From Chloroflexota bacterium (lineage in GTDB: Bacteria; Chloroflexota; Dehalococcoidia; GIF9; AB-539-J10), in the NCBI GenBank assembly GCA_030611015.1, contig JAUWQP010000001.1, forward strand, positions 1 through 62,933: 62,933 bases of DNA, read 5' to 3'. Below the pieces are notes generated by a model. It was not told the DNA's origin. It did not search any database and saw nothing but the letters and a program-made list of their open reading frames with translations. Of the stretch, positions 44,349-62,933 are shown piece by piece; the stretch's first letter is position 1, and each line of letters begins with the position of its first letter. Both the position numbers and the translations under genes were made by a program.

Positions 44349-44349
44349 C

Positions 44350-44814
44350 TCATTTCCCTCCTCTAGCTTTGATTGTCTCTTTTGGCTTCTTCTCTATCAT
44401 CGAACCCTTTTTCAGCGGACCCAGTTTTGCCAATTCCTGCCGCATCTCTTCCACCAACCTGGGGATTCTGTTGCCTTCAGGGTCCCTAGATAGTTCTATC
44501 CTAATCCTTTCCTTCTCTATACCAACAGATCCTAACAGCCTGCGAACTAAATACACTCTCTTCTTTGCCTCGTAGTTGCCATCTTGATAGTGACAGTCCC
44601 CTTCCGGGCAACCGAGTATCAGAATTCCGTCGGCCCCTGCTTTGAATGCCTCGAGCATATGCGTGGCATCAATTTTCCCCGTGCAAATTAGTGGCATCCA
44701 GTTATCTATCTTGCTTGAGAGCGTATCTTCATCTCTCAGATAGCCCCAGCTAAATTTGCAGGAAAAACACACTAATTTAGGTTTATATTCACTCAATGCC
44801 ATCCTCCTAAACAA
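44350..44814 (-). CDS. mvhD: MvhD/FlpD-like subunit, copy 2
   Basis: 154 aa with FSCKFS, ICTGKI, GADGILILGCPEGDCHY. Confidence 0.8.
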   Translation of the reverse strand: MFRRMALSEYKPKLVCFSCKFSWGYLRDEDTLSSKIDNWMPLICTGKIDATHMLEAFKAGADGILILGCPEGDCHYQDGNYEAKKRVYLVRRLLGSVGIEKERIRIELSRDPEGNRIPRLVEEMRQELAKLGPLKKGSMIEKKPKETIKARGGK

Positions 44815-47514: not shown

Positions 47515-47527
47515 GAGAGTACGTACA

Positions 47528-50500
47528 ATGAAACGACTTGCGTCGGTAGAGGAATTAACCAAGCTTAGAGACCAAATTCGCAAGAAACTGTCACAACGAG
47601 AAAAGAAGACCCAGGTAAAGGTTCATCTTGGAACATGCGGTATATCTTCAGGCGCAAACAAAGTTCTTGAAGCTTTTCAACGAGAGATCGAAAGCCGTAA
47701 CTTAGCAGATGTCACCATATTAAAGGCAGCCTGCATTGGCTTGTGCGACCGAGAGCCAGTAGTCACAATTGTTCATCCCATAAAAGGCGAGACTACTTAT
47801 TATGACCTCTCCGAGGACAAAGTTCCAAAGATCGTCGAGGAGCACCTCATTAAAGATAAGATAGTGGACGAATGGAAACTGAACCCCGATGACCCCTTGC
47901 TCAAGCTGCAAGAGATAAGAATAATGCATAACCAGGACCTCGACCCGATGAGCATCGAAGAATACATCGCCCGAGACGGCTATCAAGCGCTGGCTAAAGC
48001 ACTGACCCAGATGAAGCCGGAGGACGTTATCGCAGAAATGGGAAAGGCTGGCTTGAGAGGCCGAGGAGGAGCAGGTTTCCCAACAGCTACGAAGTGGACA
48101 TTTGTCCGCAATGCTCAGGGCGATGAAAAATACGTTGTCTGCAACGGTGACGAAGGTGACCCCGGCGCCTATATGAACCGAGCTGTTCTCGAAGGTAACC
48201 CACATTCAATAGTCGAGGGTATGGCCATAGGAGCCTATGCCATAGGCAATGTGCGCCAAGGTTATGCATACGTCCGCGCTGAATATCCCCTCGCTATCGA
48301 AACATTAAGTCACGCTATAAACCAGGCCCGAAAATATGGCCTGCTGGGTAAAAACATCCTGGGAACCAGCTTTGAATTCGACCTGGATATATTCCCGGGG
48401 GCCGGTGCCTTTGTCTGCGGCGAAGAAACAGCTCTCCTGATCTCAATCGAAGGAAAACGAGGAAACCCTCGCCAGCGACCACCTTTTCCAGCCAACAAAG
48501 GGCTTTTCGACAAACCAACCACGCTCAACAACGTGGAAACCTGGTCAAACGTCCCACAGATAATCTGGAAAGGAGCTGAATGGTTTGGCAGCGTGGGCAC
48601 GGCAACCAGCAAGGGCACAAAGACCTTGTGTCTGGTTGGCAAGGTGAAGAACACCGGCCTGGTTGAAGTCCCTCTGGGTACTAGCCTGGGCAAGATTGTA
48701 TTTGATATCGGCGGCGGTATACCGAATGGAAAGAAGTACAGGGCAGTACAGATAGGTGGCCCATCAGGCGGCGTCATCCCTATCGAGCACTTAAATACCC
48801 CCGTCGACTATGAGGCTGTCACCGCACTGGGAGCTATCATGGGCTCGGGCGGACTAGTGGTAATGGATGAGGATAGTTGCATGGTCGACGTCGCCAAGTT
48901 CTTTCTCCAATTTACCAGGGACGAGTCTTGCGGGAAATGCACTCCCTGCCGTGCCGGAATACCCAAGATGCTTGAACTCCTGACCAAGATCACAGACGGC
49001 AAAGGCACGATGGAAGATCTCGCAATACTAGAAGAGCTGGGTGAAATGGTCGGTTCGGCCTCTATCTGTGGCCTGGGACAAACAGCACCCAACCCAGTGC
49101 TGACCACACTTCGGCATTTTAGAGAGGAATATGAAGCACATATCATAGACAAGAGGTGCCCGGCTGTGGTCTGCCAGGCTCTATTCAAGGCACCATGTCA
49201 GCATGCATGTCCTGTTGGCCTAGATGTCCCGGGATATATTGCCCTCATAAAAGCGGGCGAATTCGAGAAAGCCTATGACACCATTATGCAACGGCTTCCA
49301 TTCCCGTTGAGTGTTGGACGCGTATGTCACCATCCCTGCGAAGGCAAATGCCGACGAACTCAAATCGAGGAACCTATTGCAATCAGGCACCTGAAGAGAT
49401 TCGCCGCTGACTATGCATTTGACCACGGACTTGAATGCATCCCTCAGATAAGAGAGAAGAGGAAAGAAAAGGTAGCGATCATAGGCGCCGGTCCTGCAGG
49501 ACTATCAGCAGCCTGGGACCTTGCCAGAGAAGGCTTCCAGGTTACCATGTTTGAAGCCCTGCCCGTGGCTGGTGGCATGCTGGCAGTAGGCATACCTGAA
49601 TACCGCCTCCCAAAGAACATTCTCAATAGAGAGATCGAAACGGTGAAAAAGTTGGGGGTTGATATAAGACTTAACTCACCCGTAAACGATGTCGAATCCC
49701 TGCTGCAAGACGGTTACCATGCGGTATTTATCGCCACCGGTGCCCATAAAGGCGACAAGATGGGCATCCCCGGTGAAGACCTGAATGGAGTCTTTGACGC
49801 CATTGACTTCTTGAGAGAGGTAAATCTGGGGAAAGATATTGAAGTAGGACAAAAGGTGGCTGTCGTTGGAGGTGGCAACTCTGCCATCTATGCCGCTGGA
49901 GTAGCCCTGAGAAAGGGCGCTAAAGAAGTGCATATTCTCTATCGAAGAGAAAAGAGAGATATGCCGGCAATAGTCGAAGAGATCGAGGCCGCTGAAGAGG
50001 AAGGCATACATATTCACTGTCTAACAGCGCCGGTCAAGATCGTGGGCAAGAGCGGCAAAGTCGAAGGAGTCAAGTGCATCCGCATGGAACCAAGGGAGTT
50101 TGACAGGAGTGGCAGAAAGACCCCTCACCAGATCAAGGGTTCCGAATACACTATGAATGTCGATATGGTTATCGAAGCTACAGGACAGAGACCCGATACT
50201 TCATTCCTTAGAAGAGATGGGATAAGCGCAACGAAACGAGGAACGATAGTAGCCGACCCGAGAACTCTAGCTACCGGACGTAAAGGAGTTTTCGCCGGCG
50301 GAGATGTATATACGGGCGCAGCCACAGTAATCGAAGCGATAGCTGCAGGACAGAGGGCAGCCTGCTCAATAAGACGGTATCTTCAAGGAGAAGAACTCAC
50401 GCCATTGGTCGAGCGCAACGGCTATGAACCTATAGATGTGCCTTCTGTGATGCCCACTGACGAACAACTTGAAGAAAAGTATCGGCTAAAGATTGGCGAG

Positions 50501-50617
50501 ATTCTCGCCGCTGACAGGATAACTTCCTTTAAGGAAGTAGTCTTGCCTTACAGCGCGAAGGAGGCAATAGAAGAAGCCAGCCGATGTCTAAGATGTGACC
50601 TTGAAGCAGGAGAATAG
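47528..50617 (+). CDS. hoxF: NuoF/HoxF-like FMN/NAD(H) subunit fused to a C-terminal GltD/NfnB-like FAD/NAD(P)H module
   Basis: 1029 aa. N-terminal Trx-like 2Fe-2S, then GLRGRGGAGFPT, GDEGDPGAY, ESCGKCTPCR, SICGLGQ. From about residue 545 the GltD-type part begins: CQHACPV, VCHHPCEGKCRR, VAIIGAGPAGLSAAWDL, GIPEYRLPK. Confidence 0.8.
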   Translation: MKRLASVEELTKLRDQIRKKLSQREKKTQVKVHLGTCGISSGANKVLEAFQREIESRNLADVTILKAACIGLCDREPVVTIVHPIKGETTYYDLSEDKVPKIVEEHLIKDKIVDEWKLNPDDPLLKLQEIRIMHNQDLDPMSIEEYIARDGYQALAKALTQMKPEDVIAEMGKAGLRGRGGAGFPTATKWTFVRNAQGDEKYVVCNGDEGDPGAYMNRAVLEGNPHSIVEGMAIGAYAIGNVRQGYAYVRAEYPLAIETLSHAINQARKYGLLGKNILGTSFEFDLDIFPGAGAFVCGEETALLISIEGKRGNPRQRPPFPANKGLFDKPTTLNNVETWSNVPQIIWKGAEWFGSVGTATSKGTKTLCLVGKVKNTGLVEVPLGTSLGKIVFDIGGGIPNGKKYRAVQIGGPSGGVIPIEHLNTPVDYEAVTALGAIMGSGGLVVMDEDSCMVDVAKFFLQFTRDESCGKCTPCRAGIPKMLELLTKITDGKGTMEDLAILEELGEMVGSASICGLGQTAPNPVLTTLRHFREEYEAHIIDKRCPAVVCQALFKAPCQHACPVGLDVPGYIALIKAGEFEKAYDTIMQRLPFPLSVGRVCHHPCEGKCRRTQIEEPIAIRHLKRFAADYAFDHGLECIPQIREKRKEKVAIIGAGPAGLSAAWDLAREGFQVTMFEALPVAGGMLAVGIPEYRLPKNILNREIETVKKLGVDIRLNSPVNDVESLLQDGYHAVFIATGAHKGDKMGIPGEDLNGVFDAIDFLREVNLGKDIEVGQKVAVVGGGNSAIYAAGVALRKGAKEVHILYRREKRDMPAIVEEIEAAEEEGIHIHCLTAPVKIVGKSGKVEGVKCIRMEPREFDRSGRKTPHQIKGSEYTMNVDMVIEATGQRPDTSFLRRDGISATKRGTIVADPRTLATGRKGVFAGGDVYTGAATVIEAIAAGQRAACSIRRYLQGEELTPLVERNGYEPIDVPSVMPTDEQLEEKYRLKIGEILAADRITSFKEVVLPYSAKEAIEEASRCLRCDLEAGE

Positions 50618-50619
50618 AC

Positions 50620-52611
50620 ATGAAAGAAATAACGCTTACAATCAATGGCAAGCAGGTTAAAGGCAGAGAAGGTGATACTGTTCTTGAGGTATGTGAGGCT
50701 AATAATATATACGTTCCAACTTTATGCCACTTAAAAGGAATTGCTGATGTAGGTGCCTGCCGCATGTGTGTGGTTGATATCGAAAGAGAAAGGCGCCCTG
50801 TACCTGCCTGCACTTATCCAGCACGAGATGGTCTGGTAGTACAGACGCACAACGAAAAACTGGAGAAATACCGCCGGCTGATTCTGGAATTGATGTTTAC
50901 AGAACGCAACCATCTGTGCGCCCAGTGCGTGGCCAGCGGCGATTGTGAACTGCAGAATCTTGCCTACGAATACCAGATGGACAATGTCCGCTATCCATAT
51001 TCCTGGCCTGCATTGCCTCTAGACTCAGTAAACGATTATCTTGTTATTGACCATAATCGCTGTATTTTATGTGGCAGATGCATCAGGACTTGCGACGAAA
51101 TTGTAGGCGTTCACACACTGGACTTCGGACATCGCGGTTGGAAAGTCATGGTCGTCGCCGACCTCAATCAACCTTTAGGAGCATCATCCTGCATTTCCTG
51201 CGGAGCTTGTTTTCAAGTCTGCCCCACGGGTGCCATTTTCTCCAAAAACAGCGCCTATAAAGGAAAACCCGAAGAGTGCCGAAAGGTAAACAGCATATGT
51301 CCAATATGTGGGGTCGGCTGCAAAATTGAAGCACTGGTTAAGGACAACAGGCTTATCAGAATTGACAGCCCTGACCTGAGCAACAAGCGCGGTATACTTT
51401 GTCACAAAGGACGTTTCACTCCCCTGTACAATAAAAACGAACGAGTCAAGACAGCACTGGTAAGAAATAGTCGCGGTAAGCTCGAGCCACGGCCATTACC
51501 TGAAGCAATAGACATAGTCACCACGAAGCTTGCCGAACTGAAAGCTCAATACGGGAATAACAGCATAGCTGGCATAGCATCAAGCCAGGCCAGCAACGAC
51601 TCCCTTAAGGCCTTCAAAGAATTCCTAGCCGGTACAATCGGCAGTGACTTAATCGACGCTCTCGATGGGGATGCCTACAGAACTATTATCAAGGGCATAA
51701 ACGATCCTAGAGCTCAGGGAGGTTTGGATATCGAAACCTCGCTAGAAGAGATACTCAAGGCTGATTGCATAATCGTAGTAGGAGCCAATCCCCTTGAAAG
51801 CCATCCTGTGGCTGGTTCTTATATCGCCAGAGCAGCAAGACGGAACAAGGCAACACTCGTCGTCATCGACCCGGCGCAAAATGCCTTCCCTTACCATGCT
51901 ACACTATGGTTAAAACCAAAGGAAGGCAATGAGCAATTGGCCCTGGACGTCCTATCCAAAGCCGTCATAGATAAAGGCGCCAAGAGAGACTCTACCCGGA
52001 CAAACGAAATAGCAGCATACCTCAAGGATATTAATGTGAAGAAAAGCATTCAGCAAGCTGGGATAGGCACTGATGACCTTCTTGAGGCTGCAGATATGCT
52101 CAGCAAGGCCAAACACAGCGTCATAATCTACGGGGAAGGCATTCTACGACACAAGAATCACAGACTGATAACATCTCTTCTCAATTTGGCGGCTGTCGCC
52201 AGCAGTCAAGACAAAGAGAAACCACGAATTATTTCTCTAAAACCTAAGGGGAACAGCCGTGGCGCCTGGGATATGGGAATAGCCAATTCATCGCAATCAC
52301 TCATAAAGAACCTGACGAGCAACAACATAAAGGCTTTATACTTACTTCTGTCTGATGACTATGTTGACGCATCAGAATTGCCCAACCTTAGCACAGAATT
52401 GGAATTCATAGTTATTCAGTCAAGTTATCTCTCATCTGCAACATCGAAAGCCGACGTCGTATTACCATCGCCAATCTGGACAGAGGCAGGGGAAGAATAC
52501 ATTACACTGGATGGTATAGCCAAATCGACCTCGCGCCTCGTCAAGCCATCTGATGGCATCAAAGCAGATGCAGAGATATTGCGCGAAATTTCACAACAGA
52601 TGAAGAAATAG
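50620..52611 (+). CDS. hoxU: HoxU/NuoG-like Fe-S subunit with C-terminal molybdopterin-oxidoreductase-like (apparently degenerate) domain
   Basis: 663 aa. 2Fe-2S (C..GACRMC), a His-ligated cluster (HLCAQCVASGDC), and 2x4Fe-4S (CILCGRCIRTC, CISCGACFQVCP). Next is an MopB-type cluster, CPICGVGC..C. The segment where formate dehydrogenases carry ..C/U-H.. reads SNDSLKAFKEFLAGTIGSDLID. Confidence 0.7.
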   Translation: MKEITLTINGKQVKGREGDTVLEVCEANNIYVPTLCHLKGIADVGACRMCVVDIERERRPVPACTYPARDGLVVQTHNEKLEKYRRLILELMFTERNHLCAQCVASGDCELQNLAYEYQMDNVRYPYSWPALPLDSVNDYLVIDHNRCILCGRCIRTCDEIVGVHTLDFGHRGWKVMVVADLNQPLGASSCISCGACFQVCPTGAIFSKNSAYKGKPEECRKVNSICPICGVGCKIEALVKDNRLIRIDSPDLSNKRGILCHKGRFTPLYNKNERVKTALVRNSRGKLEPRPLPEAIDIVTTKLAELKAQYGNNSIAGIASSQASNDSLKAFKEFLAGTIGSDLIDALDGDAYRTIIKGINDPRAQGGLDIETSLEEILKADCIIVVGANPLESHPVAGSYIARAARRNKATLVVIDPAQNAFPYHATLWLKPKEGNEQLALDVLSKAVIDKGAKRDSTRTNEIAAYLKDINVKKSIQQAGIGTDDLLEAADMLSKAKHSVIIYGEGILRHKNHRLITSLLNLAAVASSQDKEKPRIISLKPKGNSRGAWDMGIANSSQSLIKNLTSNNIKALYLLLSDDYVDASELPNLSTELEFIVIQSSYLSSATSKADVVLPSPIWTEAGEEYITLDGIAKSTSRLVKPSDGIKADAEILREISQQMKK

Positions 52612-52636
52612 CAATTGAAAAGAAGGAGTTTCTAAC

Positions 52637-53173
52637 ATGACAAAGGTCAAGGTAGCTACAATCTGGTTGGAAGCTTGTGCTGGCTGTCATATGTCATTCC
52701 TTGATATTGATGAGGCGATAATCGATCTAGCTGATATGGTCGAATTCACCAGGACTCCTATAACGGACATAAAGGACTTCCCCCAGGTAGACGTCGGCAT
52801 TGTAGAAGGCTCTGTCGGCAACACTGAAGAGGAAGAGGTGCTCAAGGAACTCAGGGCTCACTGCAAAATCCTTATGGCCTGGGGGGATTGCGCCTGCTTC
52901 GGTGGTGTGTGTGCCATGCGCAACACTTTCGATAAAGAAGAGGTTCTCAGGCGAGGATATATCGAGACTGAAAGTACCTCCAAAGGCAAGATACCCTGCC
53001 CGCCTGGTGTCCCGGCACTCCTTGACCAAGTGAAACCAGCGAATCATGTAGTAAAGGTAGACTGCTATGTTCCAGGCTGTCCACCAGAAGCTGGAGCTAT
53101 CTTATATGCGTTAAAAGAGCTGCTGGCAGGTAGAATCCCGGTTCTGCCCAGCGATATGATGCGCTTCGACTAG
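52637..53173 (+). CDS. hoxY: [NiFe]-hydrogenase small subunit, short Hox (group 3d-like) type
   Basis: 178 aa with EACAGCHMS, GDCACFGG and GCPP. Confidence 0.85.
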   Translation: MTKVKVATIWLEACAGCHMSFLDIDEAIIDLADMVEFTRTPITDIKDFPQVDVGIVEGSVGNTEEEEVLKELRAHCKILMAWGDCACFGGVCAMRNTFDKEEVLRRGYIETESTSKGKIPCPPGVPALLDQVKPANHVVKVDCYVPGCPPEAGAILYALKELLAGRIPVLPSDMMRFD

Positions 53174-53187
53174 AAAGAGGTGAAGAC

Positions 53188-54624
53188 ATGGCTACTGAAG
53201 TTAGCAAAACTATCGAAATAAACCCCGTTAGCCGGATTGAAGGACACGGCAAGGTAACAATACAACTGGACGATTCAGGGAATGTAGCCGACGCCAAATT
53301 TCATGTAACACAATTTCGAGGCTTTGAAAAGTTCTGCGAAGGCAGAGTTTTCTGGGAGATGCCGGTAATAACGCCCAGAATCTGCGGCATCTGCCCTGTG
53401 AGCCACCATTTAAGCGCAGCCAAAGCCTGTGATGAGATTTTGGGAGTTGAACTAACCCGCCCAGCTAAACTCTTGCGTGAATTGATGCATATGGGGCAGA
53501 TCCTTCAATCCCACGCCCTTCATTTTTTCTACCTTGCCAGTCCAGATTTACTTCTCGGCATGGACGCTGAACCGGCAAAGAGAAATGTAATCGGTTTGAT
53601 TGCTGAGAATCCTGACATCGCTGTTAAAGGTGTCAAGCTTCGCAGCTTTGGTCAGACAATAATCCAAAAGCTGGGTGGTAAGAAAATCCACCCTAACGGC
53701 GCTGTACCTGGCGGCATGAACACAGCTCTGTCCACCGCTGACAGAGACCATTTCTTGAAGCAGCTTGATTGGGCTATCGCCGATGCTCAGGCCGCTATAG
53801 GCATAATCAAGAGTTACTATGAAAAAGACAAAGAGTTTGTGTGTACCTGCGCCAGTTTTCCCACAGGCTATCTCGGGCTGGTGGATGAACACAACAACTT
53901 GGAACTCTACAACGGTCAATTGAGGTTAATTGACCAAAAAGGAAGAGTCCTTGAAGACCAGTTCAATCCATCCAATTACCTCGATATAATCAGGGAACAT
54001 GTGGAGGATTGGTCTTATCTCAAGTTCCCCTTTTATAAGAGGATGGGCTATCCCAGGGGTACTTACCGAGTAGGCCCGCTTGCCCGGCTTAACGTTAGTC
54101 AGGGAATATCAACTCCTTTAGCCAATGCTGAACTCAAGAACTTCAAGAAATTGGGCAACAATGGCATAGTAGAGGGTTCATTATACTATCATTACGCCCG
54201 CCTCATAGAACTGCTTTATTCCATCGAAAGGATCCAGCAGCTACTGGAGGACAAGGACATACGTTCGACTGACCTGATAGTCACCTCAAACAAGTACAAT
54301 GAGCAGGGCGTTGGCGTGCTCGAAGCACCGAGGGGCACTTTATTCCATCACTACTGGGTAGACGACACTGGCAAAATCAAGAAAGTCAACCTCATAGTAG
54401 CCACAGGCAACAACAATGCTGCCATGAACAAGGCAGTATACGAGGTAGCCAGAACGCACATAAAGAACAACAAGATAACCGAAGGTATACTCAACCGAGT
54501 TGAGGTGGCTATCCGTTGCTATGACCCTTGTCTATCATGCTCAACACATGCCTTGGGTCAAATGCCTTTCAACATTCAGGTCGTATCACGTGACGGTGAA
54601 ATAATAAAAGAGATAATAAGGTAG
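53188..54624 (+). CDS. hoxH: [NiFe]-hydrogenase large subunit, Hox (group 3d-like) type
   Basis: 478 aa with [11 protein letters not shown] and DPCLSCSTH. Confidence 0.85.
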
Positions 54625-54755
54625 TATCCTGTGTTTACTCTGTACATCGGTGCGACACAACAGCGATACTCTCAAGCCCAGAACAGTATGGCACCGTGAT
54701 GCCATTACACTGATGTTTGCAGATGACTACAGTGGATAATCTATCTATACGATGA

Positions 54756-56162
54756 CTACTCGGTACTACCCCTCAAATATTCGTCTATATCGGTAGCTGC
54801 CCGCCGTGCTGCCCCCATGGCGCTAATAACAGTGGCGGCCCCCGTAGCCATATCCCCCCCACACCAGACTCTCTCCTTGCTTGTCCTACCACTGGCCTCA
54901 TCAGTCAGTATGGTACCCCACTTAGTGAGTTCAAGTCCCTTGGTTGTTGAGGGAATAATCGGGTTAGGCCTTGTGCCCAGAGCAGGAATGGCAGTATCTA
55001 TCTCCATAATGAACTCAGAGCCTGGCTTTCGAATAGGCCGCGGCCGGCCACTTTCATCGGGCTCACCCAATTCCATTTCATGTAACTCCACTGCCCTGAC
55101 TCTACTCCGTTCATCACCAAGAAACCTGCTGGGATTGGTCAAAAGATTGAAAATCACTCCCTCTTCTTCAGCGTTTTCCCTCTCCTCAAGCCTGGCAGGC
55201 ATCTCCGCTTTGGAGCGCCGATAGATAATATACACTTCTTCTGCTCCGAGTCTCAAGGCACATCTGGAAGCATCCATAGCTACATTCCCGGCGCCAAATA
55301 CTGCTACCCGCTTCCCTACTTGTATGGGAGTATCATACTCCGGAAAAAGATATGCCTTCATCAGATTTGTCCGAGTAAGAAACTCGTTAGCAGAATAAAT
55401 ACCACTAAGATTCTCCCCAGGTATATTCAGGAACATTGGCGCCCCAGCCCCGGGAGATAAGAAAACGGCGTCAAAGCCATTTTCCAGAAGTTCATCTACG
55501 ATAGCTATTTTTCCGATAACATGATTGAGCTTAATTTCCACACCCAGCGACTTCACATAATCAACTTCACCCTGAACGATTACCTTGGGTAGCCTAAACT
55601 CGGGGATGCCATACATCAGCACGCCACCGGCAATATGAAGTGCTTCAAAAATAATAACCTCATATCCCAGCTTGGCCAGGTCAGCGGCACAGGTTAGACC
55701 TGCTGGCCCACAGCCGACTACAGCCACCCGTTTACCAGTTGGTTTGGGCGGCTCTGCCTTCGGGTTCAGCGCTCCCCTATTAGCCCGCTCCCAATCAGCC
55801 ACGTAACGCTCCAGGCGTCCGATGGCACTGGGTGCTCCTTTCTTAGCTAACGAGCATGCTTGTTCACACTGTGTCTCTTGTGGGCAGACCCGCCCGCAGA
55901 TACCGGGCAGGCTGTTCTTATCCTTGAGTATCCTTACCGCTTCGGGCATATTATCATCAAGGACAGCCTTGATAAAAGCGGGAATATCTACCTCCACCGG
56001 GCAGCCATCAATGCAGGGATGCTTGGGACACTGGAGACAACGGCTTGCCTCGGCTTTAGCCTGCTCGGCGCTGTAACCCAAGGCAACCTCGCTAAAGTTT
56101 TTGCCCCGCGTCTTGGGCTCCTGCTTTATCATTGGCTCCCTGTTGAGATTCGCCTTAACCAT
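54756..56162 (-). CDS. nfnB: NfnB/SudA/GltD-type NADPH-binding FAD iron-sulfur oxidoreductase
   Basis: 468 aa with CLQCPKHPCIDGCPV, CGRVCPQETQCE, VAVVGCGPAGLTCAADL and GIPEFRLPK. Confidence 0.8.
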   Translation of the reverse strand: MVKANLNREPMIKQEPKTRGKNFSEVALGYSAEQAKAEASRCLQCPKHPCIDGCPVEVDIPAFIKAVLDDNMPEAVRILKDKNSLPGICGRVCPQETQCEQACSLAKKGAPSAIGRLERYVADWERANRGALNPKAEPPKPTGKRVAVVGCGPAGLTCAADLAKLGYEVIIFEALHIAGGVLMYGIPEFRLPKVIVQGEVDYVKSLGVEIKLNHVIGKIAIVDELLENGFDAVFLSPGAGAPMFLNIPGENLSGIYSANEFLTRTNLMKAYLFPEYDTPIQVGKRVAVFGAGNVAMDASRCALRLGAEEVYIIYRRSKAEMPARLEERENAEEEGVIFNLLTNPSRFLGDERSRVRAVELHEMELGEPDESGRPRPIRKPGSEFIMEIDTAIPALGTRPNPIIPSTTKGLELTKWGTILTDEASGRTSKERVWCGGDMATGAATVISAMGAARRAATDIDEYLRGSTE

Positions 56163-56183
56163 GTATGTTGCTTAGGCCTCCAT

Positions 56184-57047
56184 TCAACAACGCTTGTCCA
56201 TCTGAGCCTGCCACTGCTCAAAAGAGCGTTTTTCCTCATCAAGATAAATACGCTGCCGGACCAAGAGCAAGTCCCAGTCTACCTGATGCCCGTCAAAATC
56301 AGGCCCATCCACGCAGGTAAACCTGGTTACGCCACCAACGGATACACGGCAGCAGCCACACATCCCGGTGCCATCAACCATTATTGGATTCAGGCTAACA
56401 ATAGTTTTCACCCCGAAAGGCTGGGTGGTCAGGGCACAGAACTTCATCATGATGGTCGGGCCAATGGCAATGACTCGGTCAACCTTCTCCTCACTCTCAA
56501 GCAGCTCCTTCAGTGGCTCAGTTACTACCCCTTTGCGACCATAAGTGCCATCATCGGTAGTAACTATTAGCTGGTGGCTGACACTGCGTAGTTTATCTTC
56601 CCAGAAGAGCAAGTTCTTGCTCCGTGCCCCCAAAATGGAGATAATCTTGTTTCCCTTCTCCTTCAGTGCCTTGGCAATAGGCGTTATTGACGCAGCACCA
56701 ACCCCTCCCGCCACACAGACTATAGTACCAAATTTGTCAATATGCGATGGTACACCAAGGGGACCAACAAAGTCGGCAATGGAGTCACCGGCTTTCAGCA
56801 ACGCCAGCCTGAAGGTTGTCGCTCCCGCTTCCAGAAACACCAGGGTAACACTGCCTTCCTTCCCATTCCAGTCAGCAAGCGTCAGAGGAATACGCTCGCC
56901 TCTTTCATCAATCCTGATGACAACAAACTGCCCCGCCAGCGCTTTTCTAGCAATTGCCGGTGCTTCGATTTTGAACAAATGAATTTTCGTCCCTAAAGTC
57001 TCTCTAGAAATAATCCGAAACATTTGGTGAACTCCATCCCAATTCAT
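56184..57047 (-). CDS. nfnA: NfnA/SudB-type FAD/NAD(H)-binding [2Fe-2S] subunit
   Basis: 287 aa with a ferredoxin-reductase fold (GQFVVIRI, GPLG, VAGGVGAA) and a C-terminal Cys cluster CGCCRV. Confidence 0.8.
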   Translation of the reverse strand: MNWDGVHQMFRIISRETLGTKIHLFKIEAPAIARKALAGQFVVIRIDERGERIPLTLADWNGKEGSVTLVFLEAGATTFRLALLKAGDSIADFVGPLGVPSHIDKFGTIVCVAGGVGAASITPIAKALKEKGNKIISILGARSKNLLFWEDKLRSVSHQLIVTTDDGTYGRKGVVTEPLKELLESEEKVDRVIAIGPTIMMKFCALTTQPFGVKTIVSLNPIMVDGTGMCGCCRVSVGGVTRFTCVDGPDFDGHQVDWDLLLVRQRIYLDEEKRSFEQWQAQMDKRC

Positions 57048-58727
57048 TTAGCTAAATAAAGCTTCTACCTGAGCTAGAATTTGCTCATCAGTGAAGTGGT
57101 GCATAGAAATGGCTCCTGAAGGGCAGGCAGCACCGCAGGTGCCACAACCTTTGCATACTGCTTCATTGACATGGGACACTCTCTTCCCATCTCTCGGCTG
57201 AAGCTCGATAGCTTTAAAGGGACACAAGACTTCGCAAATCCCACAGCCTGAGCATTCCTCCTCATTGACGAATGCATTTATCGCCTCAGCCTTTACATAT
57301 CCCATTCTCAGGGGACCGGCTGCTTTTGAAGCAGCAGCATAGGCTTGAGAAATTCCTTCAGTTACATCTGTGGGCCAGCGTGCTGAGCCACAGATGTAAA
57401 TTCCATCCATGGCGAACTCTACAGGGCGGAGCTTTAAGTGTGCTTCCAGGAAGAAACCAAACTCGTCTAAGGAAACTTTAAGCATTTTGGAGATATTTTG
57501 GTTATCCTCGGCAGGGATAAGGGGAGTAGTTAAAACAAGCATATCACAGGGAAGTTCTATTTCCTTTCTCCATAGTTCATGGTACACCTTTATTCTTTCA
57601 ACCTTCCCATCTCCGATAACTTCGGGAGGCTTTTCTAAGCTATATCTAATGAATCTGACCCCCAGCTCCATGGCTCTTCGATAATAGCTCTCAAAATCCA
57701 CACCATATGTCATGAGGTCTCGGTGCAATATCCAGACCCTTGCCTTTGGATTCGATTCTTTAATAAGCGAGGCGTTTTTAATCGCCGTCATGCAGCAGAT
57801 TCTGCTGCAATAGGTTCTCTCAGGAACCCGGGCTCCTACACAATTGATCATCACAACATTCTGCCCTACGGGTTTCCCCTTTTTCGTATGCTCCTCTAAC
57901 TCCAGTTGAGTAAGTACATTAGTCATCTTTCCATAGCCATATTGACCCGTCGGTTTTAATGCCTCAGCTCCGGTGGCTAATATAATAGTACCCACATTGA
58001 ATTGGTTCTCCTCTCCCTTCCCATCCAGACTGACATCGAAGTTGCCTATAAATCCAGTTACTTGCTTTACTTTAGACGAGAGATAAGTGTGAATCTTGGG
58101 ATGGTTTTTAACCTGTTCAACAAGTAATTTGATTAACTTCGCTGCTTCCTGGTTCGCTTGAAAAAGTTTATGAATACTACAAAGAGTCCCTCCAAACTCT
58201 GGTTCCTTTTCCACTAAATGAACATCAAAATCCTGCCTGGCCAGGTTTAAGGCTGCCTCCATTCCAACAATTCCTCCACCAATCACCAATGCCGAAGGAG
58301 CCACCTTCATTTCAATCTCCTCCAGTGGCTCCAGCAACCTGGATTTGGCCACTCCCATCCTTATAAGGTCTTTAGCCTTTTCTGTAGCCTTCTCGAGCTC
58401 ACGCATATGCACCCAGGAGCATTGGTCTCTTATGTTGACAAACTCGAAAAGGTATTTGTTCAAACCCGCTTCCTCACAAGCAGCTCGAAAGAGCGGCTCA
58501 TGGGTTCTGGGAGTACAGGAAGCTACTATGACCCGATTCAGGTTGTATTCCTTGATCCCTTTTTTGATTGCTGAAATCCCTTCCTCAGAGCAGGTGAATA
58601 GATTGCGCTCAGCATGCACTACGTTTGGTAGCTGCTTAACATATTCAACAACTTCTGGGACGTTGACGTATGCCCCGATATTTATGCCACAATGACAAAC
58701 AAAAACTCCGATACGAGGTTCTTCCAC
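57048..58727 (-). CDS. hdrA: HdrA-like flavoprotein (N-terminal Cys domain + FAD domain + C-terminal 2x[4Fe-4S]); no inserted ferredoxin domain evident
   Basis: 559 aa with GTG start. RIGVFVCHCGINIG, ASCTPRTHE, IRDQCSWVH, VIGGGIVGMEAALNLA, CSGCGICEVLCP, CKGCGTCGAACP. Confidence 0.75.
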   Translation of the reverse strand: MEEPRIGVFVCHCGINIGAYVNVPEVVEYVKQLPNVVHAERNLFTCSEEGISAIKKGIKEYNLNRVIVASCTPRTHEPLFRAACEEAGLNKYLFEFVNIRDQCSWVHMRELEKATEKAKDLIRMGVAKSRLLEPLEEIEMKVAPSALVIGGGIVGMEAALNLARQDFDVHLVEKEPEFGGTLCSIHKLFQANQEAAKLIKLLVEQVKNHPKIHTYLSSKVKQVTGFIGNFDVSLDGKGEENQFNVGTIILATGAEALKPTGQYGYGKMTNVLTQLELEEHTKKGKPVGQNVVMINCVGARVPERTYCSRICCMTAIKNASLIKESNPKARVWILHRDLMTYGVDFESYYRRAMELGVRFIRYSLEKPPEVIGDGKVERIKVYHELWRKEIELPCDMLVLTTPLIPAEDNQNISKMLKVSLDEFGFFLEAHLKLRPVEFAMDGIYICGSARWPTDVTEGISQAYAAASKAAGPLRMGYVKAEAINAFVNEEECSGCGICEVLCPFKAIELQPRDGKRVSHVNEAVCKGCGTCGAACPSGAISMHHFTDEQILAQVEALFS

Positions 58728-58728
58728 C

Positions 58729-61461
58729 TTACTTGCCCCCTGCTATAGCTTCAGCAACTCTGCCCGCTGCCCCCGAGGCCTGGGTTACAGAATCCGGGAT
58801 ATCCCGTGGACTATGGACATAGCCACAGGCAAAAATGCCCGGCCTTGTAGTATCCAGTGGTTGCAGCAATTTATCTGGAACCTCTACAAAGCCATCCTCG
58901 TTTAACTCTATACCTAGTATTTTCGCCAATTCCTTGGTGATTTGAGGAACCATAGCTTGGGCAAGAACCACCAGTTCCGCTTCAAAGTTCTTTATTTCTC
59001 CGCTGGTGGTTTCCTCATACCAAATAATAGGGTTATCATTCTCAGGGTTAACTTCGATCCTGCCAGGGCGACTCCTGATAAAAGTCACGTTGTATTCCTT
59101 TTTAGCCCTGGCGATGTATTCCTGGAACCTTTTACCCACAGCTCTCATATCCATGTAAAAAATGGTGGATTTGGTTCCTGGATGATGCTCGAAAGCCAGC
59201 ATTGCCTCCTTGGTGGCGTGCATACAGCAGACACTGGAGCAATAAGCTTTATTCCTGAAATCGCGAGAGCCGACACATTGGATAAACGCTATATTCTCAG
59301 GTATCCTGCCATCCGAAGGACGCCTAAGTTCTCCCATAGTAGGTCCAGAGGCTGCAGTCAATCTCTCAAATTCCATGGCAGTAATCACGTTCTTGATCTT
59401 CCCATAGCCGTATTCTGTCAGTGACGAAACATCGTATAAGCCCAGTCCCGAGGCGATGATTATCGCGCCCACCTCCAGTGCAATGGTCTCATTTTTCATC
59501 GTATAGACTATCGCTTTGGGCTCACATCGCCGCTCACATTCATGGCATTCTATGCATCCTTCTATTTGTCCGGCAAGACAGCTTGAGGCTTCCTCTGTGG
59601 CTTCTTCTAAGGAATACCCCAGAGCTACTTCACGAAAGTCCTTTGTCCTCTCCTTAACAGGTTCCTCCCGCATCTTCACTTTATTTCTGGAAGGAACGCG
59701 CTTCTTGAGGTCCTTTATCTCTTCCTCGGACAGCTTCTCGGGTTCCTTCCCTAGTTCTTCACCCTCGATAGGTTGTCCAGTCAAGTACTGGTGAATAGAG
59801 CGGGCTGTCTTTTTCCCTGCTGCAATAGCATCAATCACGAAGGCAGGTCCAGTCACCACATCGCCTCCGGCGAATACTCCTTCAATATTAGTGGCCCCGG
59901 TCTTGTCATCGATTTCTATCGTGCCCCTCTTGGAAAGTGAAACTCCCAGCTCTTTAACAAAATCTGTTTCTGGAGCCTGACCTAATGCCGCAATCACTGT
60001 ATCCACAGCAATGGTGAATTCAGAACCCTTGACGGGAACGGGGCGCGGACGACCACTAGTGTCTGGTTCCCCAAGTTTCATCCGCACACACTCCATCCTG
60101 GCAAGTTTTTTGTTCTCCGACAAGAATCGGCTTGGAGTAGTCAGGAACTCTATCTTTATCCCTTCCTCTTCTGCCGCCGTTACTTCTTCCCCGGAAGCCG
60201 GCATCTCAGCGCGGGAACGACGGTAAACAATGGTTACCTCCTTCGCTCCTAGACGCCTTGCAGTGCGGGCACAATCTACAGCTGTATTGCCTCCACCAAT
60301 CACAGCCACCTTATTTCCAATATCTACCTTCTCCCCGAGATTCGCAGCACGGAGAAATTCTATTCCCTCTATTACTCCCGGAATATCTCCACCATCCACT
60401 CCCAGTCTCATGACGCCGTGTGCTCCAACGCCGAGAAAAACGGCACCGTAGGTCTTTTTCAATTCTTCGAGGGTAATATCTTTACCAACCTGGATGCCCG
60501 TCTTGATCTCCACGCCAAGCTTCTGGATATAGCCTATCTCCTGGCGTAAAATATCCTTGGGAAGGCGATATTCGGGTATGCCAACACGAAGCATACCTCC
60601 GGGTTCAGGAAGGGCTTCAAAGATAGTTACATTGTGACCCTTTAGGGCAAGGTCACTAGCAGCGGCAAGACCTGCCGGACCTGCACCCACAATCGCTACC
60701 CTTTTGTCTGTTTTGGCCACAACCGGCACCTCAAGTTCTTCAATATTCCACTGGTCTGAGGGAACTCTCTTAAGGTCACGGATACAAATTGGCTCATCTA
60801 TTTGCCCGCGATTGCAGGCTTCCTGGCAAGGAGCATAGCACACCCGCCCAACACATGCAGGCAGGGGATTTGTCTCTCTTATAAGCTTATAAGCCTCTTT
60901 GAACTGTCCTTCTGCAATGAGCTTGATATAACCGGGCACATTAGTATGAACTGGACAGGCATCCATACAAGCCGCTTTGCAGGGGCGCTCTTCCCTTCTA
61001 TCTATAACGCATTTCTTGGGAACAGCCTGAGGAAACAGCATGTATATAGCTTTTCTCTTTCCAATCCCCTGATCGAATTCGTTTGGCAGAATGACAGGGC
61101 AGCCTTCAATACAAAGGCCGCACCCTGTACATTTGTTCCAATCGACAAAAGATGACTTTTCCTTTACCTTGACCTTGAATTTCCCTGCTTCTCCAGCAAC
61201 TTTTTCCACTTCACAATAAGTCAAAAGCTCTATGTTACTATGTGTACTCGCCTCTATCATCTTGGGGGCAAGGATACACATGGCACAGTCATTAGTGGGG
61301 AAGGTCTTATCCAGTTGTGCCATTCTTCCCCCGATACTGGGCGACTTTTCCACCAAATATACCTTAAAGCCCATATTAGCCAGGTCAAGTGAGGACTGAA
61401 TCCCAGCGATGCCACCACCGATTACTAGTACCGATTTACGTCCATTTTCGCTGTTACTCAT
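58729..61461 (-). CDS. HdrA-type FAD domain carrying an internal GltD/NfnB-like NAD(P)H module (chimeric flavoprotein)
   Basis: 910 aa. HdrA N-part VLVIGGGIAGIQSSLDLA..FPTNDCAMCIL..CTGCGLCIEGCP. GltD block CKAACMDACPV, VCYAPCQEAC, VAIVGAGPAGLAAASDL, GIPEYRLPKD. HdrA resumes at CIECHECERRCEP..FIQCVGSRD..YCSSVCCMHA. Confidence 0.75.
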   Translation of the reverse strand: MSNSENGRKSVLVIGGGIAGIQSSLDLANMGFKVYLVEKSPSIGGRMAQLDKTFPTNDCAMCILAPKMIEASTHSNIELLTYCEVEKVAGEAGKFKVKVKEKSSFVDWNKCTGCGLCIEGCPVILPNEFDQGIGKRKAIYMLFPQAVPKKCVIDRREERPCKAACMDACPVHTNVPGYIKLIAEGQFKEAYKLIRETNPLPACVGRVCYAPCQEACNRGQIDEPICIRDLKRVPSDQWNIEELEVPVVAKTDKRVAIVGAGPAGLAAASDLALKGHNVTIFEALPEPGGMLRVGIPEYRLPKDILRQEIGYIQKLGVEIKTGIQVGKDITLEELKKTYGAVFLGVGAHGVMRLGVDGGDIPGVIEGIEFLRAANLGEKVDIGNKVAVIGGGNTAVDCARTARRLGAKEVTIVYRRSRAEMPASGEEVTAAEEEGIKIEFLTTPSRFLSENKKLARMECVRMKLGEPDTSGRPRPVPVKGSEFTIAVDTVIAALGQAPETDFVKELGVSLSKRGTIEIDDKTGATNIEGVFAGGDVVTGPAFVIDAIAAGKKTARSIHQYLTGQPIEGEELGKEPEKLSEEEIKDLKKRVPSRNKVKMREEPVKERTKDFREVALGYSLEEATEEASSCLAGQIEGCIECHECERRCEPKAIVYTMKNETIALEVGAIIIASGLGLYDVSSLTEYGYGKIKNVITAMEFERLTAASGPTMGELRRPSDGRIPENIAFIQCVGSRDFRNKAYCSSVCCMHATKEAMLAFEHHPGTKSTIFYMDMRAVGKRFQEYIARAKKEYNVTFIRSRPGRIEVNPENDNPIIWYEETTSGEIKNFEAELVVLAQAMVPQITKELAKILGIELNEDGFVEVPDKLLQPLDTTRPGIFACGYVHSPRDIPDSVTQASGAAGRVAEAIAGGK

Positions 61462-62624
61462 TACTTTGATACGGTTGCCCCTTCCTTAATAGCATTTGCC
61501 ACTAGGTTTGCCAAATCCATAACTTCAATACTTGGCATTGACCGCTTTTCCTCACCCTTGTCTATCATGGCACATCTGAAATGCGTCTGACATTTAGGAC
61601 AAGCAGTTATGAGCAACTCTGCCCCGGTTTCCGTCGCCTCACACAGCCTTTCGGCCCTTAGCATGTTCGAATACGAGTCGCAGTTCGTCCAAGCACTGGT
61701 GCCACAGCAAATGGATTCCAATCCACTATGTCTCATCTCAACCAATTCTATGCCGGGAATTGACTCGAGCACCTTCCGAGGGGCATCATACACACCTAAA
61801 TGCCTTCCTAATCGACAAGGGTCCTGATAGGTGACCTTCTTATTGATTTCCTTAAATTTCACTCCGTTTTGCCCTATCTTCTCCGCCAAGAATTCGGAGA
61901 TATGCTGCACTTCGCAACCCAAATCTACATAATTGGGGTAGTCCAGTTTGAATGTGCGATAACCCTCGGGGCACGAAAAAACTATTTCCTTGACCCCTGC
62001 CTCTTTAATCTGGGCGGCATTGTGCTCAGCCAACTTCTTAAATGTCTCTATGTCGCCAGTCCAAAGCGCATCATGACCACAGCATTTCTCATCAGGAAGC
62101 AGCTTGGGCTTTATTCCCAGAAGATTCAAGACTTTCAAGCTTGCCTCAGTGATATCAAGAGCTCTAAACTCGATGTCCTCAAAGATGGGCTCAAAATATG
62201 GGGCACATCCTACCCAGAGAAGAACATCGCTGTTTTCTGAAACACTATACTCCTTGGAAAGCCATTCCAATCTCTTTTGCTTAATAGTAGGGCTGGTCAT
62301 AAGTCTCGCCAGAGATTGCAGTTGTCCAGAGTGGGCACAAATTCCATGTTGCCCATTGTCTTGGGCTATACTTCTGGCTTTCCGCACGAAGATGGGAAAG
62401 TCAACATCACTGGGACATTCCTGTTGACAAGTATAGCAAGTAAGGCAGGAAAAGAGCTCCTTATTGAACACCAGCTCATCCTCGAAGCCCAGAAGAGCAT
62501 TCTCAATCAGCATTCGTGGAGAGAAAGCTGGGTCGTATCTCGCAATAGGGCATATACTTGTACACTTACCACACTCCAGGCAGTAGTAAGTATTGGTTTC
62601 TTGAATAATATCTTCTAAATTCAA
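61461..62624 (-). CDS. hdrD: HdrD-like protein (HdrC-type 2x[4Fe-4S] fused to HdrB-type CCG domains)
   Basis: 387 aa with CLECGKCTSICP and CLTCYTCQQECP, then CCG-domain motifs (EKCCGHD, DPCRLGRH, ICCGTS, CPKC). Confidence 0.75.
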   Translation of the reverse strand: MNLEDIIQETNTYYCLECGKCTSICPIARYDPAFSPRMLIENALLGFEDELVFNKELFSCLTCYTCQQECPSDVDFPIFVRKARSIAQDNGQHGICAHSGQLQSLARLMTSPTIKQKRLEWLSKEYSVSENSDVLLWVGCAPYFEPIFEDIEFRALDITEASLKVLNLLGIKPKLLPDEKCCGHDALWTGDIETFKKLAEHNAAQIKEAGVKEIVFSCPEGYRTFKLDYPNYVDLGCEVQHISEFLAEKIGQNGVKFKEINKKVTYQDPCRLGRHLGVYDAPRKVLESIPGIELVEMRHSGLESICCGTSAWTNCDSYSNMLRAERLCEATETGAELLITACPKCQTHFRCAMIDKGEEKRSMPSIEVMDLANLVANAIKEGATVSK

Positions 62625-62933
62625 ACCGCTACCTTCTCCTTTCTTAAAGATGAAAAAGGTGAGGGCCCGAGCTTCTTAAGCTGTTCGACAAATTCCTTGA
62701 CTACTCTGGCAAACACCGTGCCCTCGGAAGTAGATATCATCTCACGCCTCAGCCTTTCGTCCTCCAATCCGAGGATATGCATCAGCTTACTTACCTTGGC
62801 AAACATGGCATCGCACTTTACCGGTCCATCTATATAATGGCAATCTGTATAGTGACACCCGGAGACTATAACGCCGTCAGCTCCCTCTTCAAAGGCTCTG
62901 AGGATATAATCTGGATTTATCATCCCGCTACAC
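62621..62933 (-). CDS. mvhD: MvhD/FlpD-like subunit, copy 3 (5-prime end outside the window)
   Basis: The frame stays open to the window edge (..CSGMINPDYILRAFEEGADGVIVSGCHYTDCHY). Overlaps the hdrD-like start by 4 nt. Confidence 0.75.
   Translation of the reverse strand, partial: CSGMINPDYILRAFEEGADGVIVSGCHYTDCHYIDGPVKCDAMFAKVSKLMHILGLEDERLRREMISTSEGTVFARVVKEFVEQLKKLGPSPFSSLRKEKVAV

Follow-up and report, generated by a model that had tools for sequence, protein, structure and literature searches.

The closest described relatives of the operon examined here are the HdrL-type proteins, named in 2009 (PMC2702500), in which an HdrA-type flavin adenine dinucleotide (FAD) site and a GltD-type unit with NAD(P)H, FAD and 2×[4Fe–4S] sites share a single chain of about 1470–1500 aa that contains two HdrA-like units. 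HdrL is soluble and has been proposed to bifurcate or confurcate electrons with a nicotinamide cofactor, its gene is adjoined by mvhD and hdrCB-type genes, and HdrABC/HdrL has been detected in Syntrophobacter fumaroxidans proteomes (PMC5947623). Our literature search found proteome detection only, and no biochemical characterization of any HdrL. We analysed a 62,933-nt stretch of a Chloroflexota (Dehalococcoidia) genome (contig JAUWQP010000001.1, positions 1 to 62,933; hereafter the window), whose last part holds six minus-strand genes: mvhD, hdrCB2, an hdrA::gltD gene of HdrL type, a second hdrA-type gene, nfnA and nfnB. A first-pass annotation had read these genes as one operon for one physical Hdr/Nfn electron-bifurcating complex. 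We compared them with described systems and with related contig loci, which carry L numbers below. Like HdrL, the window’s hdrA::gltD product unites the HdrA-type FAD with the GltD-type sites in one polypeptide, has an hdrCB-type gene and mvhD beside it (mvhD two genes 5′ of hdrL) and is predicted to share with the second hdrA product the soluble, nicotinamide-linked mode of action.

Two other Hdr-containing systems bear on the comparison. The MetFV–HdrABC–MvhD complex of Moorella thermoacetica is a bacterial HdrABC–MvhD that takes electrons straight from a nicotinamide cofactor and whose HdrA is listed with two FAD; it is the only biochemically studied member of its kind (PMC5861303). Its hdrCB, hdrA and mvhD genes are clustered with a partner enzyme, as in the window, and one relative of our operon carries a MetV-like gene after hdrA; however, the window operon has neither metF nor metV, and the Moorella donor is NADH. 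Class II benzoyl-CoA reductase, BamBCDEFGHI, is reported as the first complex to contain two distinct bifurcation modules; cryo-electron microscopy showed its BamE to be an HdrA dimer fused into one chain, in which only a single FAD bifurcates (bioRxiv 10.64898/2026.04.10.717634). BamD, which is HdrBC/HdrD-like with one canonical and one reduced non-cubane cluster, is likened to HdrCB, and BamF is MvhD-like. In contrast, the AOR-type tungsten protein BamB and the NuoEFG-like BamGHI have no counterpart in the operon of the window or of its three closest relatives (L087–L089), the second Bam bifurcation module is HydBC-type where that of the window is Nfn-type, and BamE has Gln at its second FAD whereas both HdrA-type proteins of the window keep the Lys at flavin N5.

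We found that the two HdrA-type genes, hdrA::gltD (58729–61461, minus strand; 910 aa, HdrL910) and hdrA (57048–58727, minus strand; 559 aa, HdrA559), correspond to the two parts of a single HdrL. Relatives of HdrL910 were collected with a generic HdrA-motif scan of species-representative genomes, which gave 80 loci from many phyla (including Syntrophales, Syntrophobacterales, Desulfobacterales, Clostridia, Acidobacteriota, Anaerolineae and Bathyarchaeia) with only two close Dehalococcoidia loci among them, and their open reading frames were labelled by BLASTP against the window proteins. The commonest form among these loci is a single HdrL protein of ~1470–1500 aa. In the fused HdrL proteins of L006, L010 and L019, the region from residues 7–29 to 901–921 aligns to HdrL910 (48–51% identity) and residues ~940–1490 align to HdrA559 (45–50% identity), and the summed length of the window proteins, 910 + 559 = 1469 aa, fits that of the fused chain. 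The fused HdrL proteins that align in this way (~1475 aa; 1476–1495 aa) come from metagenome-assembled genomes (MAGs) of Syntrophales, Smithella and Clostridia. By these alignments, the window’s hdrL and hdrA are the N- and C-terminal halves of a ~1475-aa HdrL that is split into two genes 1 nt apart, rather than the two different, independent HdrA flavoproteins of the first-pass annotation. Split HdrL is also found in L004, L005 and L080. In contrast to the described HdrL, the window form has no selenocysteine.

The domains of an HdrA are divided unequally between the halves, as seen by comparison with a 656-aa HdrA and the crystallised HdrA 5odc_A. Residues 10–155 and 638–910 of HdrL910 align to HdrA 144–289 and 299–573, respectively, and HdrA559 aligns to 5odc_A 1–235 and 309–650. 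The thioredoxin-reductase-like FAD domain is present in both. HdrA559 carries the N-terminal Cys-cluster domain and the C-terminal 2×[4Fe–4S] ferredoxin domain, both absent from HdrL910, which begins at the FAD-binding motif. Conversely, HdrL910 carries the inserted ferredoxin domain, interrupted by the GltD module, and the DCxxC motif (Cys194/Cys197 of 5odc_A) in the form DCAMC (Cys59/Cys62), while HdrA559 lacks the inserted domain and reads NQEAAK in place of the motif. The Lys that hydrogen-bonds flavin N5 in the solved HdrA (Lys409 of 5odc_A) is kept as Lys751 in HdrL910 and Lys317 in HdrA559. In archaea of the anaerobic methanotrophic (ANME) groups, tandem or fused HdrA paralogues with complementary domains have been read as obligate asymmetric heterodimers, because the N-terminal cluster of a protomer in the solved HdrA is completed by Cys197 from its partner (PMC9012536, Chadwick et al.). 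By analogy, we infer that HdrL910 and HdrA559 would form an obligate asymmetric HdrA heterodimer.

The GltD/NfnB-like module of HdrL910 (~residues 157–632; 59566–60993, minus strand), with its FAD, 2×[4Fe–4S] and NAD(P)H sites, sits inside the inserted ferredoxin domain between HdrA-homologous flanks. An NfnB-like insertion of ~470–500 residues occupies the same domain in HdrA9–11 of ANME-1 (PMC9012536). The ANME case is archaeal and bioinformatic only, and there the insert and the asymmetric pairing lie on different paralogues, whereas here they are combined in one pair. The ANME insert was suggested to be a possible second bifurcation site, against which the residue at one cluster-ligand position argues here. 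The fourth ligand of the proximal [4Fe–4S] cluster is Glu in bifurcating NfnB and Lys (K170) in non-bifurcating StnC; the second mark that separates the two, the geometry of an Arg near N5, is not readable from sequence (PMC10482914). At this ligand position the insert has Lys231 (IRDLKRV), which aligns with StnC K170 and the NfnB Glu and is invariant in 11 homologues. The best PDB matches of the insert are StnC-like (9bov_A, 468.7 bits; 9n5u_A, 449.1; 8oh5_C, 394.9), with NfnB 4ylf_B at 394.8 bits.

Because of the Lys ligand and the StnC-like similarity, the GltD insert is probably a plain NAD(P)H entry/exit module of StnC type, and we rejected it as a third bifurcation site on the same two grounds. 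The GltD domain nearest to it is that of StnABC/NfnABC (Bfu-type; 8OH5, 9BOV, 9N5U; PMC10482914), which shares the Lys ligand and is a non-bifurcating NADPH module that feeds another bifurcating flavin; the receiving bifurcation module is HydBC/NuoEF-type in Stn/Bfu and HdrA-type here. The YRRS motif of the insert resembles that of NADPH-binding relatives and suggests NADPH specificity. Other nearby GltD modules are also of the Lys type, namely the insert of the 1121-aa HdrA of L087, a 605-aa GltD–ferredoxin protein (44807–46624) and a NuoF::GltD protein (47528–50617). Of the GltD modules in the window, NfnB alone is Glu-type.

The gene 5′ of hdrL, hdrCB2 (61461–62624, minus strand), encodes a soluble, HdrD-like fusion of HdrC- and HdrB-type parts, matching the Fer4 dicluster families and PF02754 (in two stretches). 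Its HdrC-type 2×[4Fe–4S] part has HdrC matches in the PDB and is followed by two CCG domains, of which the C-terminal one has five Cys and is complete and the N-terminal one has four, with SCPEGY replacing CxxC; this Cys pattern is conserved in 7 orthologues. HdrCB2 is presumed to be the high-potential (disulfide-type) reaction site. The methanogen HdrABC–MvhADG, whose HdrB has two complete five-Cys CCG motifs (two non-cubane clusters), differs in several ways: its HdrA is a four-domain homodimer of ~650-aa chains whereas neither window half has all four domains, mvhA and mvhG belong to the same unit whereas the window operon lacks mvhAG, and its substrate is CoM-S-S-CoB whereas the window’s host is a Dehalococcoidia bacterium.

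The first gene, mvhD (62621–62933, minus strand), encodes an MvhD-type [2Fe–2S] adaptor, of which the window holds only the 3′ 103 codons. The frame stays open 5′ of the presumed start Met, reading CSG before it, the product covers positions 35–123 of 123 of PF02662, and it matches the last 103 residues of MvhD from L087, a 151-aa protein with 48 extra N-terminal residues. Thus, mvhD is cut by the window end, and the operon therefore runs on past it.

Its missing part is seen in close relatives, which we obtained by exact-protein look-ups. In L087, L088 and L089 (HdrL 99%, 94% and 87% identical), the order is hdrCB1, hdrA::gltD, mvhD, hdrCB2, hdrL, hdrA, nfnA and nfnB, with products of 382–385 aa (hdrCB1), 1121–1122 aa (hdrA::gltD), 910–919 aa (hdrL), 559 aa (hdrA) and 279 aa (nfnA). 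Judged by this shared order, the Dehalococcoidia operon has eight genes, of which the window contains the last six. The six-gene parts list given at first was thus incomplete: the relatives add hdrCB1 and the 1121-aa hdrA::gltD 5′ of mvhD. The latter encodes an HdrA in which all four domains are present and which a GltD module interrupts at the site that it also occupies in HdrL. Compared with described HdrL systems, the operon of the closest relatives adds a second GltD-bearing HdrA with its own hdrCB. We inspected the sequence 5′ of hdrCB1 in L087 and L088, and both have a strong hairpin terminator and a sigma-70-like promoter (TTGCCT/TTGCCG, 17–18-nt spacer, TATACT). A sigma-54 promoter for the entire operon was considered for the relatives and rejected, the sole perfect site (L087 2340–2355) preceding a response-regulator gene and not hdrCB1. 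L088 also shares the window’s convergent Hox-like genes after the operon. At ≥79% identity, HdrL910 matches >120 database clusters, the named few of which are Dehalococcoidia/Chloroflexota MAGs.

Regulatory genes were seen upstream of the hdr genes in five loci. A histidine kinase and a sigma-54 activator lie 5′ of them in L087 (1–3457), L088 (1–3551), L089 (1–3207), L001 (1–1385) and L084 (1–3451), with a further response regulator in L084 and L087–L089. The kinase of L001, L084 and L087 contains a [FeFe]-hydrogenase large-subunit-like domain (Fe_hyd_lg_C + FeS + HisKA + HATPase), while that of L088 and L089 is cut by the locus end and shows HisKA + HATPase in its visible part. Judging from these domains, the genes may provide H2- or redox-sensing control.

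Within the window, the open reading frame positions and domain assignments bore out the six minus-strand genes first annotated, and their junctions are tight. A 4-nt overlap (gTTTGA) joins mvhD to hdrCB2, whose start is TTG with AGGAG 10 nt 5′; hdrCB2 and hdrL share 1 nt (TAATG); a single nucleotide lies between hdrL and hdrA (TAA-G-GTG), where the GTG start of hdrA559 is backed because MEEPRIGV matches the N-terminus of 5odc_A; and a 21-nt gap precedes nfnB, which has GGAGG 5′ of it. These overlaps and gaps agree with the earlier list, whereas the junction between hdrA and nfnA, which had been taken as abutting, probably does not. The second ATG of nfnA (57023, Met9) has GGAG 9 nt 5′, the NfnA/NfnS homology begins at Met9 and the nfnA of relatives is called at 279 aa. 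The true start is probably this ATG (279 aa), so that the gap is 24 nt.

Consensus scans inside the operon found 11 promoter-like matches where 10.0 are expected and 6 terminator-like matches where 6.7 are expected, in neither case an enrichment, and the hdrA/nfnA junction has no stable fold compared with shuffled sequence (z = +0.30). An internal promoter or terminator between hdrA and nfnA, which according to the first-pass annotation would have separated the Nfn genes from the Hdr genes, was rejected on these results. The six window genes are probably co-transcribed as one tightly packed unit; the single operon first proposed is upheld by the packing and by the chance level of internal signals, but it comprises eight genes and not six. 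At the operon end, the 131-nt spacer (54625–54755) between nfnB and a convergent hoxH-like gene has modest structure (z = −1.51), and the scan did not find a consensus terminator in it. A sigma-54-like −24/−12 match with one mismatch (TGGCACCTGCGGTGCT) lies in the 3′ end of hdrA at 57129–57144 (minus strand), 82–97 nt 5′ of nfnA, and is kept in L087 and L088. It overlaps the codons of a CxxCxxC ferredoxin motif, and the window holds 4 such matches where 2.38 are expected by chance, which is not an excess. We rejected the match as promoter evidence, as it is conserved through the CxxCxxC codons and the count is at chance level, although it may be a genuine site none the less.

NfnAB has been known from 2010 onward. 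The window’s nfnB (54756–56162, minus strand) encodes the large GltD-like subunit, with the bifurcating FAD, 2×[4Fe–4S] and NADP(H) site, and nfnA (56184–57047 as first called, minus strand) encodes the small PyrK-like subunit, with FAD, NAD(H) site and [2Fe–2S]. NfnB matches TIGR01316 at 574.7 bits (cut-off 471.75) and NfnA matches PRK06222 at 416.9 bits (cut-off 220) from residue 9. Residues 8–466 of NfnB align over the full length of Thermotoga maritima NfnB 4ylf_B (579.5 bits), and residues 8–282 of NfnA align to the Pyrococcus furiosus NfnI small subunit 5jca_S (363.7 bits) and to T. maritima 4ylf_A (289.8 bits). Full-length matches and models above their cut-offs thus agree with the earlier call of a canonical NfnAB pair. 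NfnB keeps the Arg of GIPEFRLPK (T. maritima R187), which in T. maritima hydrogen-bonds N5 of the bifurcating FAD (PMC6405883), and the Glu ligand (AIGRLERYV), and NfnA keeps its [2Fe–2S] motif. By these residues, NfnAB bears the sequence marks of a bifurcating enzyme. As in the described NfnAB/NfnSL of T. maritima and P. furiosus (4YLF, 5JCA), the two genes are adjacent and the lengths, domains and key residues are the same; the difference is that the window’s nfnAB do not stand alone but are the last two genes of an hdr operon. Neither subunit has an extra docking domain, their lengths equalling those of the free-standing crystallised enzymes, and nfnAB lack an mvhD adaptor gene of their own 5′, unlike the fdhAB genes of L084.

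The place of nfnAB is conserved among close relatives. They lie directly 3′ of hdrL–hdrA in L001 (MAG GCA_964586515.1), L087, L088, L089, L090, L093 and L114, with the hdrL–hdrA–nfnA–nfnB order held in relatives from 99% to ~85% HdrL identity, and in L085 an extra hdrA–mvhD::hdrCB module lies between hdrL–hdrA and nfnAB. A survey of the gene order’s recurrence, which had been proposed as a check, therefore found the four-gene order in 7 relatives. Beyond Dehalococcoidia, nfnAB terminate the HdrL clusters of three Desulfobacterota (Syntrophales/Syntrophobacterales) MAGs, L006, L009 and L012. In the Syntrophales MAG L006 (14919–19306), on which Pfam was run, the order is HdrL (1476 aa), MvhD, FrhB-like, HdrC, HdrB, an Fe–S protein (Fer4_22), PyrK-like, NfnA and NfnB, and L009 and L012 have a similar open reading frame layout. 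The FrhB-like, HdrC, HdrB, Fer4_22 and PyrK-like FAD/NAD genes of L006 make up an Flx-like set before nfnAB. PyrK-like genes, whose products are 28–30% identical to NfnA, also follow HdrL–MvhD in seven loci of various phyla, L011, L015, L032, L044, L046, L064 and L067, and in L006, L009 and L012 such a gene stands directly 5′ of nfnAB.

In some relatives, other genes hold this position. L084 (14471–18139; HdrL 79% identical) has mvhD, a molybdopterin FdhA-like gene and an FrhB/FdhB-like gene there, L086 (10421–11068; MAG GCA_034190625.1; HdrL 79% identical) has a MetV-like gene (PF12225, the C-terminal family of methylene-tetrahydrofolate reductase) directly after hdrA559, and L004 has only mvhD and no nfnAB. 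The nfnB gene itself is mosaic: nucleotide identity between the window and L088, its nearest full-length relative, is 96–99% over most of hdrL/hdrA, with short dips to 86–93%, falls to 63–70% within nfnB (55733–54834, minus strand) and returns to 94–100% in the spacer and hoxH start just 3′ of nfnB. The sharp drop inside nfnB between flanks of 90–100% identity is read as the replacement of part of the gene; by this comparison, the 3′ part of nfnB was replaced by a diverged allele or underwent gene conversion. We also collected NfnB relatives by a metagenome contig scan, of which 33 had at least 4 kb of upstream sequence and could be assessed. Upstream of them were hdr genes in 2/33, NuoEFG/Bfu-like genes in 6/33 and neither in 25/33. 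Taken together, these comparisons favour NfnAB as a replaceable, free-standing cassette that would be co-regulated with the Hdr modules.

We propose that one transcript encodes NADPH-linked Hdr bifurcating modules and a separate, free-standing NfnAB, which would be coupled through shared NADPH and ferredoxin pools, a reading that we hold to be somewhat better than an even bet. HdrL910 and HdrA559 would pair as an asymmetric heterodimer, in which the GltD FAD and its Fe–S chain would carry electrons between NADP(H) and the HdrA-type FAD. The HdrA-type FAD would then bifurcate or confurcate between two arms, one through HdrCB2 to a disulfide-type or other high-potential substrate, the other from the C-terminal ferredoxin domain through MvhD to ferredoxin or an Mvh-type hydrogenase. 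As a separate heterodimer, NfnAB would interconvert NADPH with NADH and reduced ferredoxin, and would so keep one balanced NADPH/ferredoxin pool for the Hdr modules and central metabolism. Co-transcription would here mean co-regulation and not a supercomplex. Several points weigh against parts of this proposal. Both HdrL halves keep the N5 Lys, and the bifurcating FAD is not assignable from sequence. The N-terminal CCG domain of HdrCB2 is short of one Cys, which may make the high-potential site unlike the one in HdrB. The preference for NADPH over NADH rests on similarity to NADPH enzymes, and older literature calls HdrL NADH-binding. The fdhAB and MetV-like genes at the nfnAB position belong to HdrA-binding families, so that the position could argue for docking. 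Finally, the literature yielded no biochemical study of any operon member.

The physical complex first proposed, with NfnAB docked on an HdrL/HdrA/HdrCB/MvhD core and the FADs of NfnB and HdrA wired by Fe–S clusters to link H2, NADH, NADPH, ferredoxin and a disulfide, is rather unlikely in our judgement. The tight packing in one operon speaks for it, as do the recurrence of nfnAB after hdrL–hdrA in at least 8 Dehalococcoidia contigs and at the end of the three Desulfobacterota clusters, the exchange of nfnAB for fdhAB or MetV-like genes, whose families are physical partners of HdrA complexes in methanogens and Moorella (FdhAB and MetFV; PMC5861303), and the precedent of class II benzoyl-CoA reductase for two bifurcation modules in one complex. 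However, NfnA and NfnB have the lengths and domains of free-standing crystallised enzymes and are not preceded by an MvhD adaptor as fdhAB are in L084, nfnB was partly swapped for a diverged allele while the hdr genes stayed 96–99% identical, close NfnB relatives lie mostly outside hdr clusters, and L085 and L006 have other genes between hdrL and nfnAB. The canonical, replaceable and mosaic character of NfnAB and the rarity of upstream hdr genes thus count against this central claim of the first-pass annotation. Some of the same evidence would suit a simpler view, which we also regard as improbable, that nfnAB are a mobile housekeeping cassette which lands 3′ of redox operons and is merely co-transcribed: the mosaic nfnB, the variable genes after hdrA in relatives and the mixed upstream contexts of NfnB relatives agree with it. 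Against such chance adjacency stand the retention of the hdrL–hdrA–nfnA–nfnB order down to ~85% HdrL identity and the independent recurrence in Desulfobacterota; moreover, each context that nfnAB do join is a bifurcating system linked to NAD(P)H/ferredoxin, as would be expected of pool coupling.

The Nfn pair might instead not be a transhydrogenase at all, serving the Hdr core as an NAD(P)H:Fe–S input/output module, a part that FlxA plays in FlxABCD–HdrABC and that PyrK-like subunits beside HdrL may play in other phyla. The PyrK-like genes that follow HdrL–MvhD in seven loci and directly precede nfnAB in L006, L009 and L012 would accord with such a role, but we think it very unlikely, as the window pair is far nearer to characterised NfnAB (579.5 and 363.7 bits) than to PyrK-like proteins, keeps the Arg and Glu ligand specific to bifurcating NfnB and matches the NCBIfam models above their cut-offs. 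A more ambitious variant is a two-stage bifurcation ratchet, suggested by where the GltD module lies: it interrupts the inserted ferredoxin domain, through which electrons leave for ferredoxin in methanogen HdrA (PMC9012536). By analogy with that enzyme, the Hdr stage would reduce NADP+ as its low-potential acceptor and NfnAB would re-bifurcate the NADPH, possibly within one supercomplex. Speculatively, disulfide reduction would drive the Hdr stage, with electrons from low-pressure H2 via Mvh or from another donor, and NfnAB would yield reduced ferredoxin and NADH. We consider this quite unlikely; if true, energy-starved subsurface Dehalococcoidia would use two different bifurcating flavins, one after the other, to raise the electrons of a weak donor to the level of ferredoxin.

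Hydrogenase genes lie near the operon but outside it. The window has a second mvhDGA set (41893–44814, minus strand; Pfam) behind a GltD–ferredoxin gene, and an mvhD–mvhG–mvhA–hycI cassette (36587–39923, minus strand; 147, 319, 488 and 151 aa by open reading frames and Pfam, with mvhD at 39480–39923), so that the neighbouring MvhAG copies reported at first are indeed there. The same cassette (147/319/488–489/151–157 aa) stands directly 3′ of nfnB in L001, L089, L090, L093 and L114, whereas in the window it lies ~15 kb from nfnB on the same strand. By this comparison, a rearrangement or insertion has parted nfnB from mvhDGA–hycI in the window genome, as in L088. H2 is a plausible donor or product in view of these gene neighbourhoods; the H2 link of the earlier proposal is therefore plausible through the five relatives in which the cassette follows nfnB, but mvhAG are not part of the window operon.

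Other redox genes of the window adjoin these sets. A GAF histidine kinase (40511–41758, minus strand) and a response regulator (40082–40465) precede mvhD–mvhG–mvhA–hycI. At 41893–46624 (minus strand), the gene for the 605-aa GltD-like protein with a C-terminal ferredoxin domain, which is Lys-type and lacks the YRR motif of NADPH-binding relatives, is followed by mvhD, mvhG and mvhA, and a similar GltD–ferredoxin gene lies beside mvhDGA in L086. A convergent five-gene operon (46984–54624, plus strand) encodes NuoE-like (176 aa), NuoF::GltD (1029 aa; Lys-type GltD with a YRRE motif) and NuoG-like (663 aa, with a molybdopterin domain) proteins and both subunits of a [NiFe] hydrogenase (small, 178 aa; large, 478 aa). 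From its domains, it looks like a HydBC/Bfu-type bifurcating module to which a group-3-like [NiFe] hydrogenase and an NADP(H) module are joined. At 32245–36598 (plus strand), genes for an ABC transporter of molybdate/tungstate type (a binding protein, a permease and a TOBE ATPase) are followed by moaA and moaC; this set adjoins the hydrogenase and molybdopterin-protein genes. Farther away, a defence/restriction island of lower G+C (0.41–0.45) occupies 2357–11723 and 15384–17065, with genes for a Type ISP restriction–modification protein (1032 aa), a 483-aa protein that has no Pfam match, a methyltransferase, a protein with an AbiJ N-terminal domain and an Mrr-like nuclease and, further along, an HNH nuclease and an N4/N6 DNA methylase pair; interspersed are leuCD-like genes (108–1591) and an isopropylmalate/isocitrate dehydrogenase gene (7364–8437).

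Every part of the operon is already a known kind. The first-pass annotation had put the whole forward as a candidate undescribed complex, but its hdrA::gltD is of the HdrL type (PMC2702500), asymmetric HdrA pairs and an HdrA carrying an NfnB-like insert have been on record in silico since 2022 (PMC9012536), StnC-type GltD modules were described in 2023 (PMC10482914), and a fused HdrA dimer was solved in the 2026 preprint on class II benzoyl-CoA reductase. What appears to be new is the arrangement: in a full-text literature search, we met no report of an hdr operon that ends in nfnAB, in agreement with the earlier statement that no such described system was known, nor of two GltD-bearing Hdr modules in tandem, nor of a split HdrL in Dehalococcoidia (“HdrL” matching mostly unrelated papers).

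HdrL-type proteins span many anaerobic phyla, and the operon is common in uncultured Dehalococcoidia. As its HdrL is naturally split, co-expression of two genes would be a simple test of the asymmetric heterodimer idea, and the operon places Nfn-type and Hdr-type bifurcating enzymes under one promoter. If the two are only co-regulated, the operon is an ordinary though tidy case of operon-level redox balancing. If they act in series or together, it would show how pools of H2, NADH, NADPH, ferredoxin and thiol/disulfide are linked at the thermodynamic limit.

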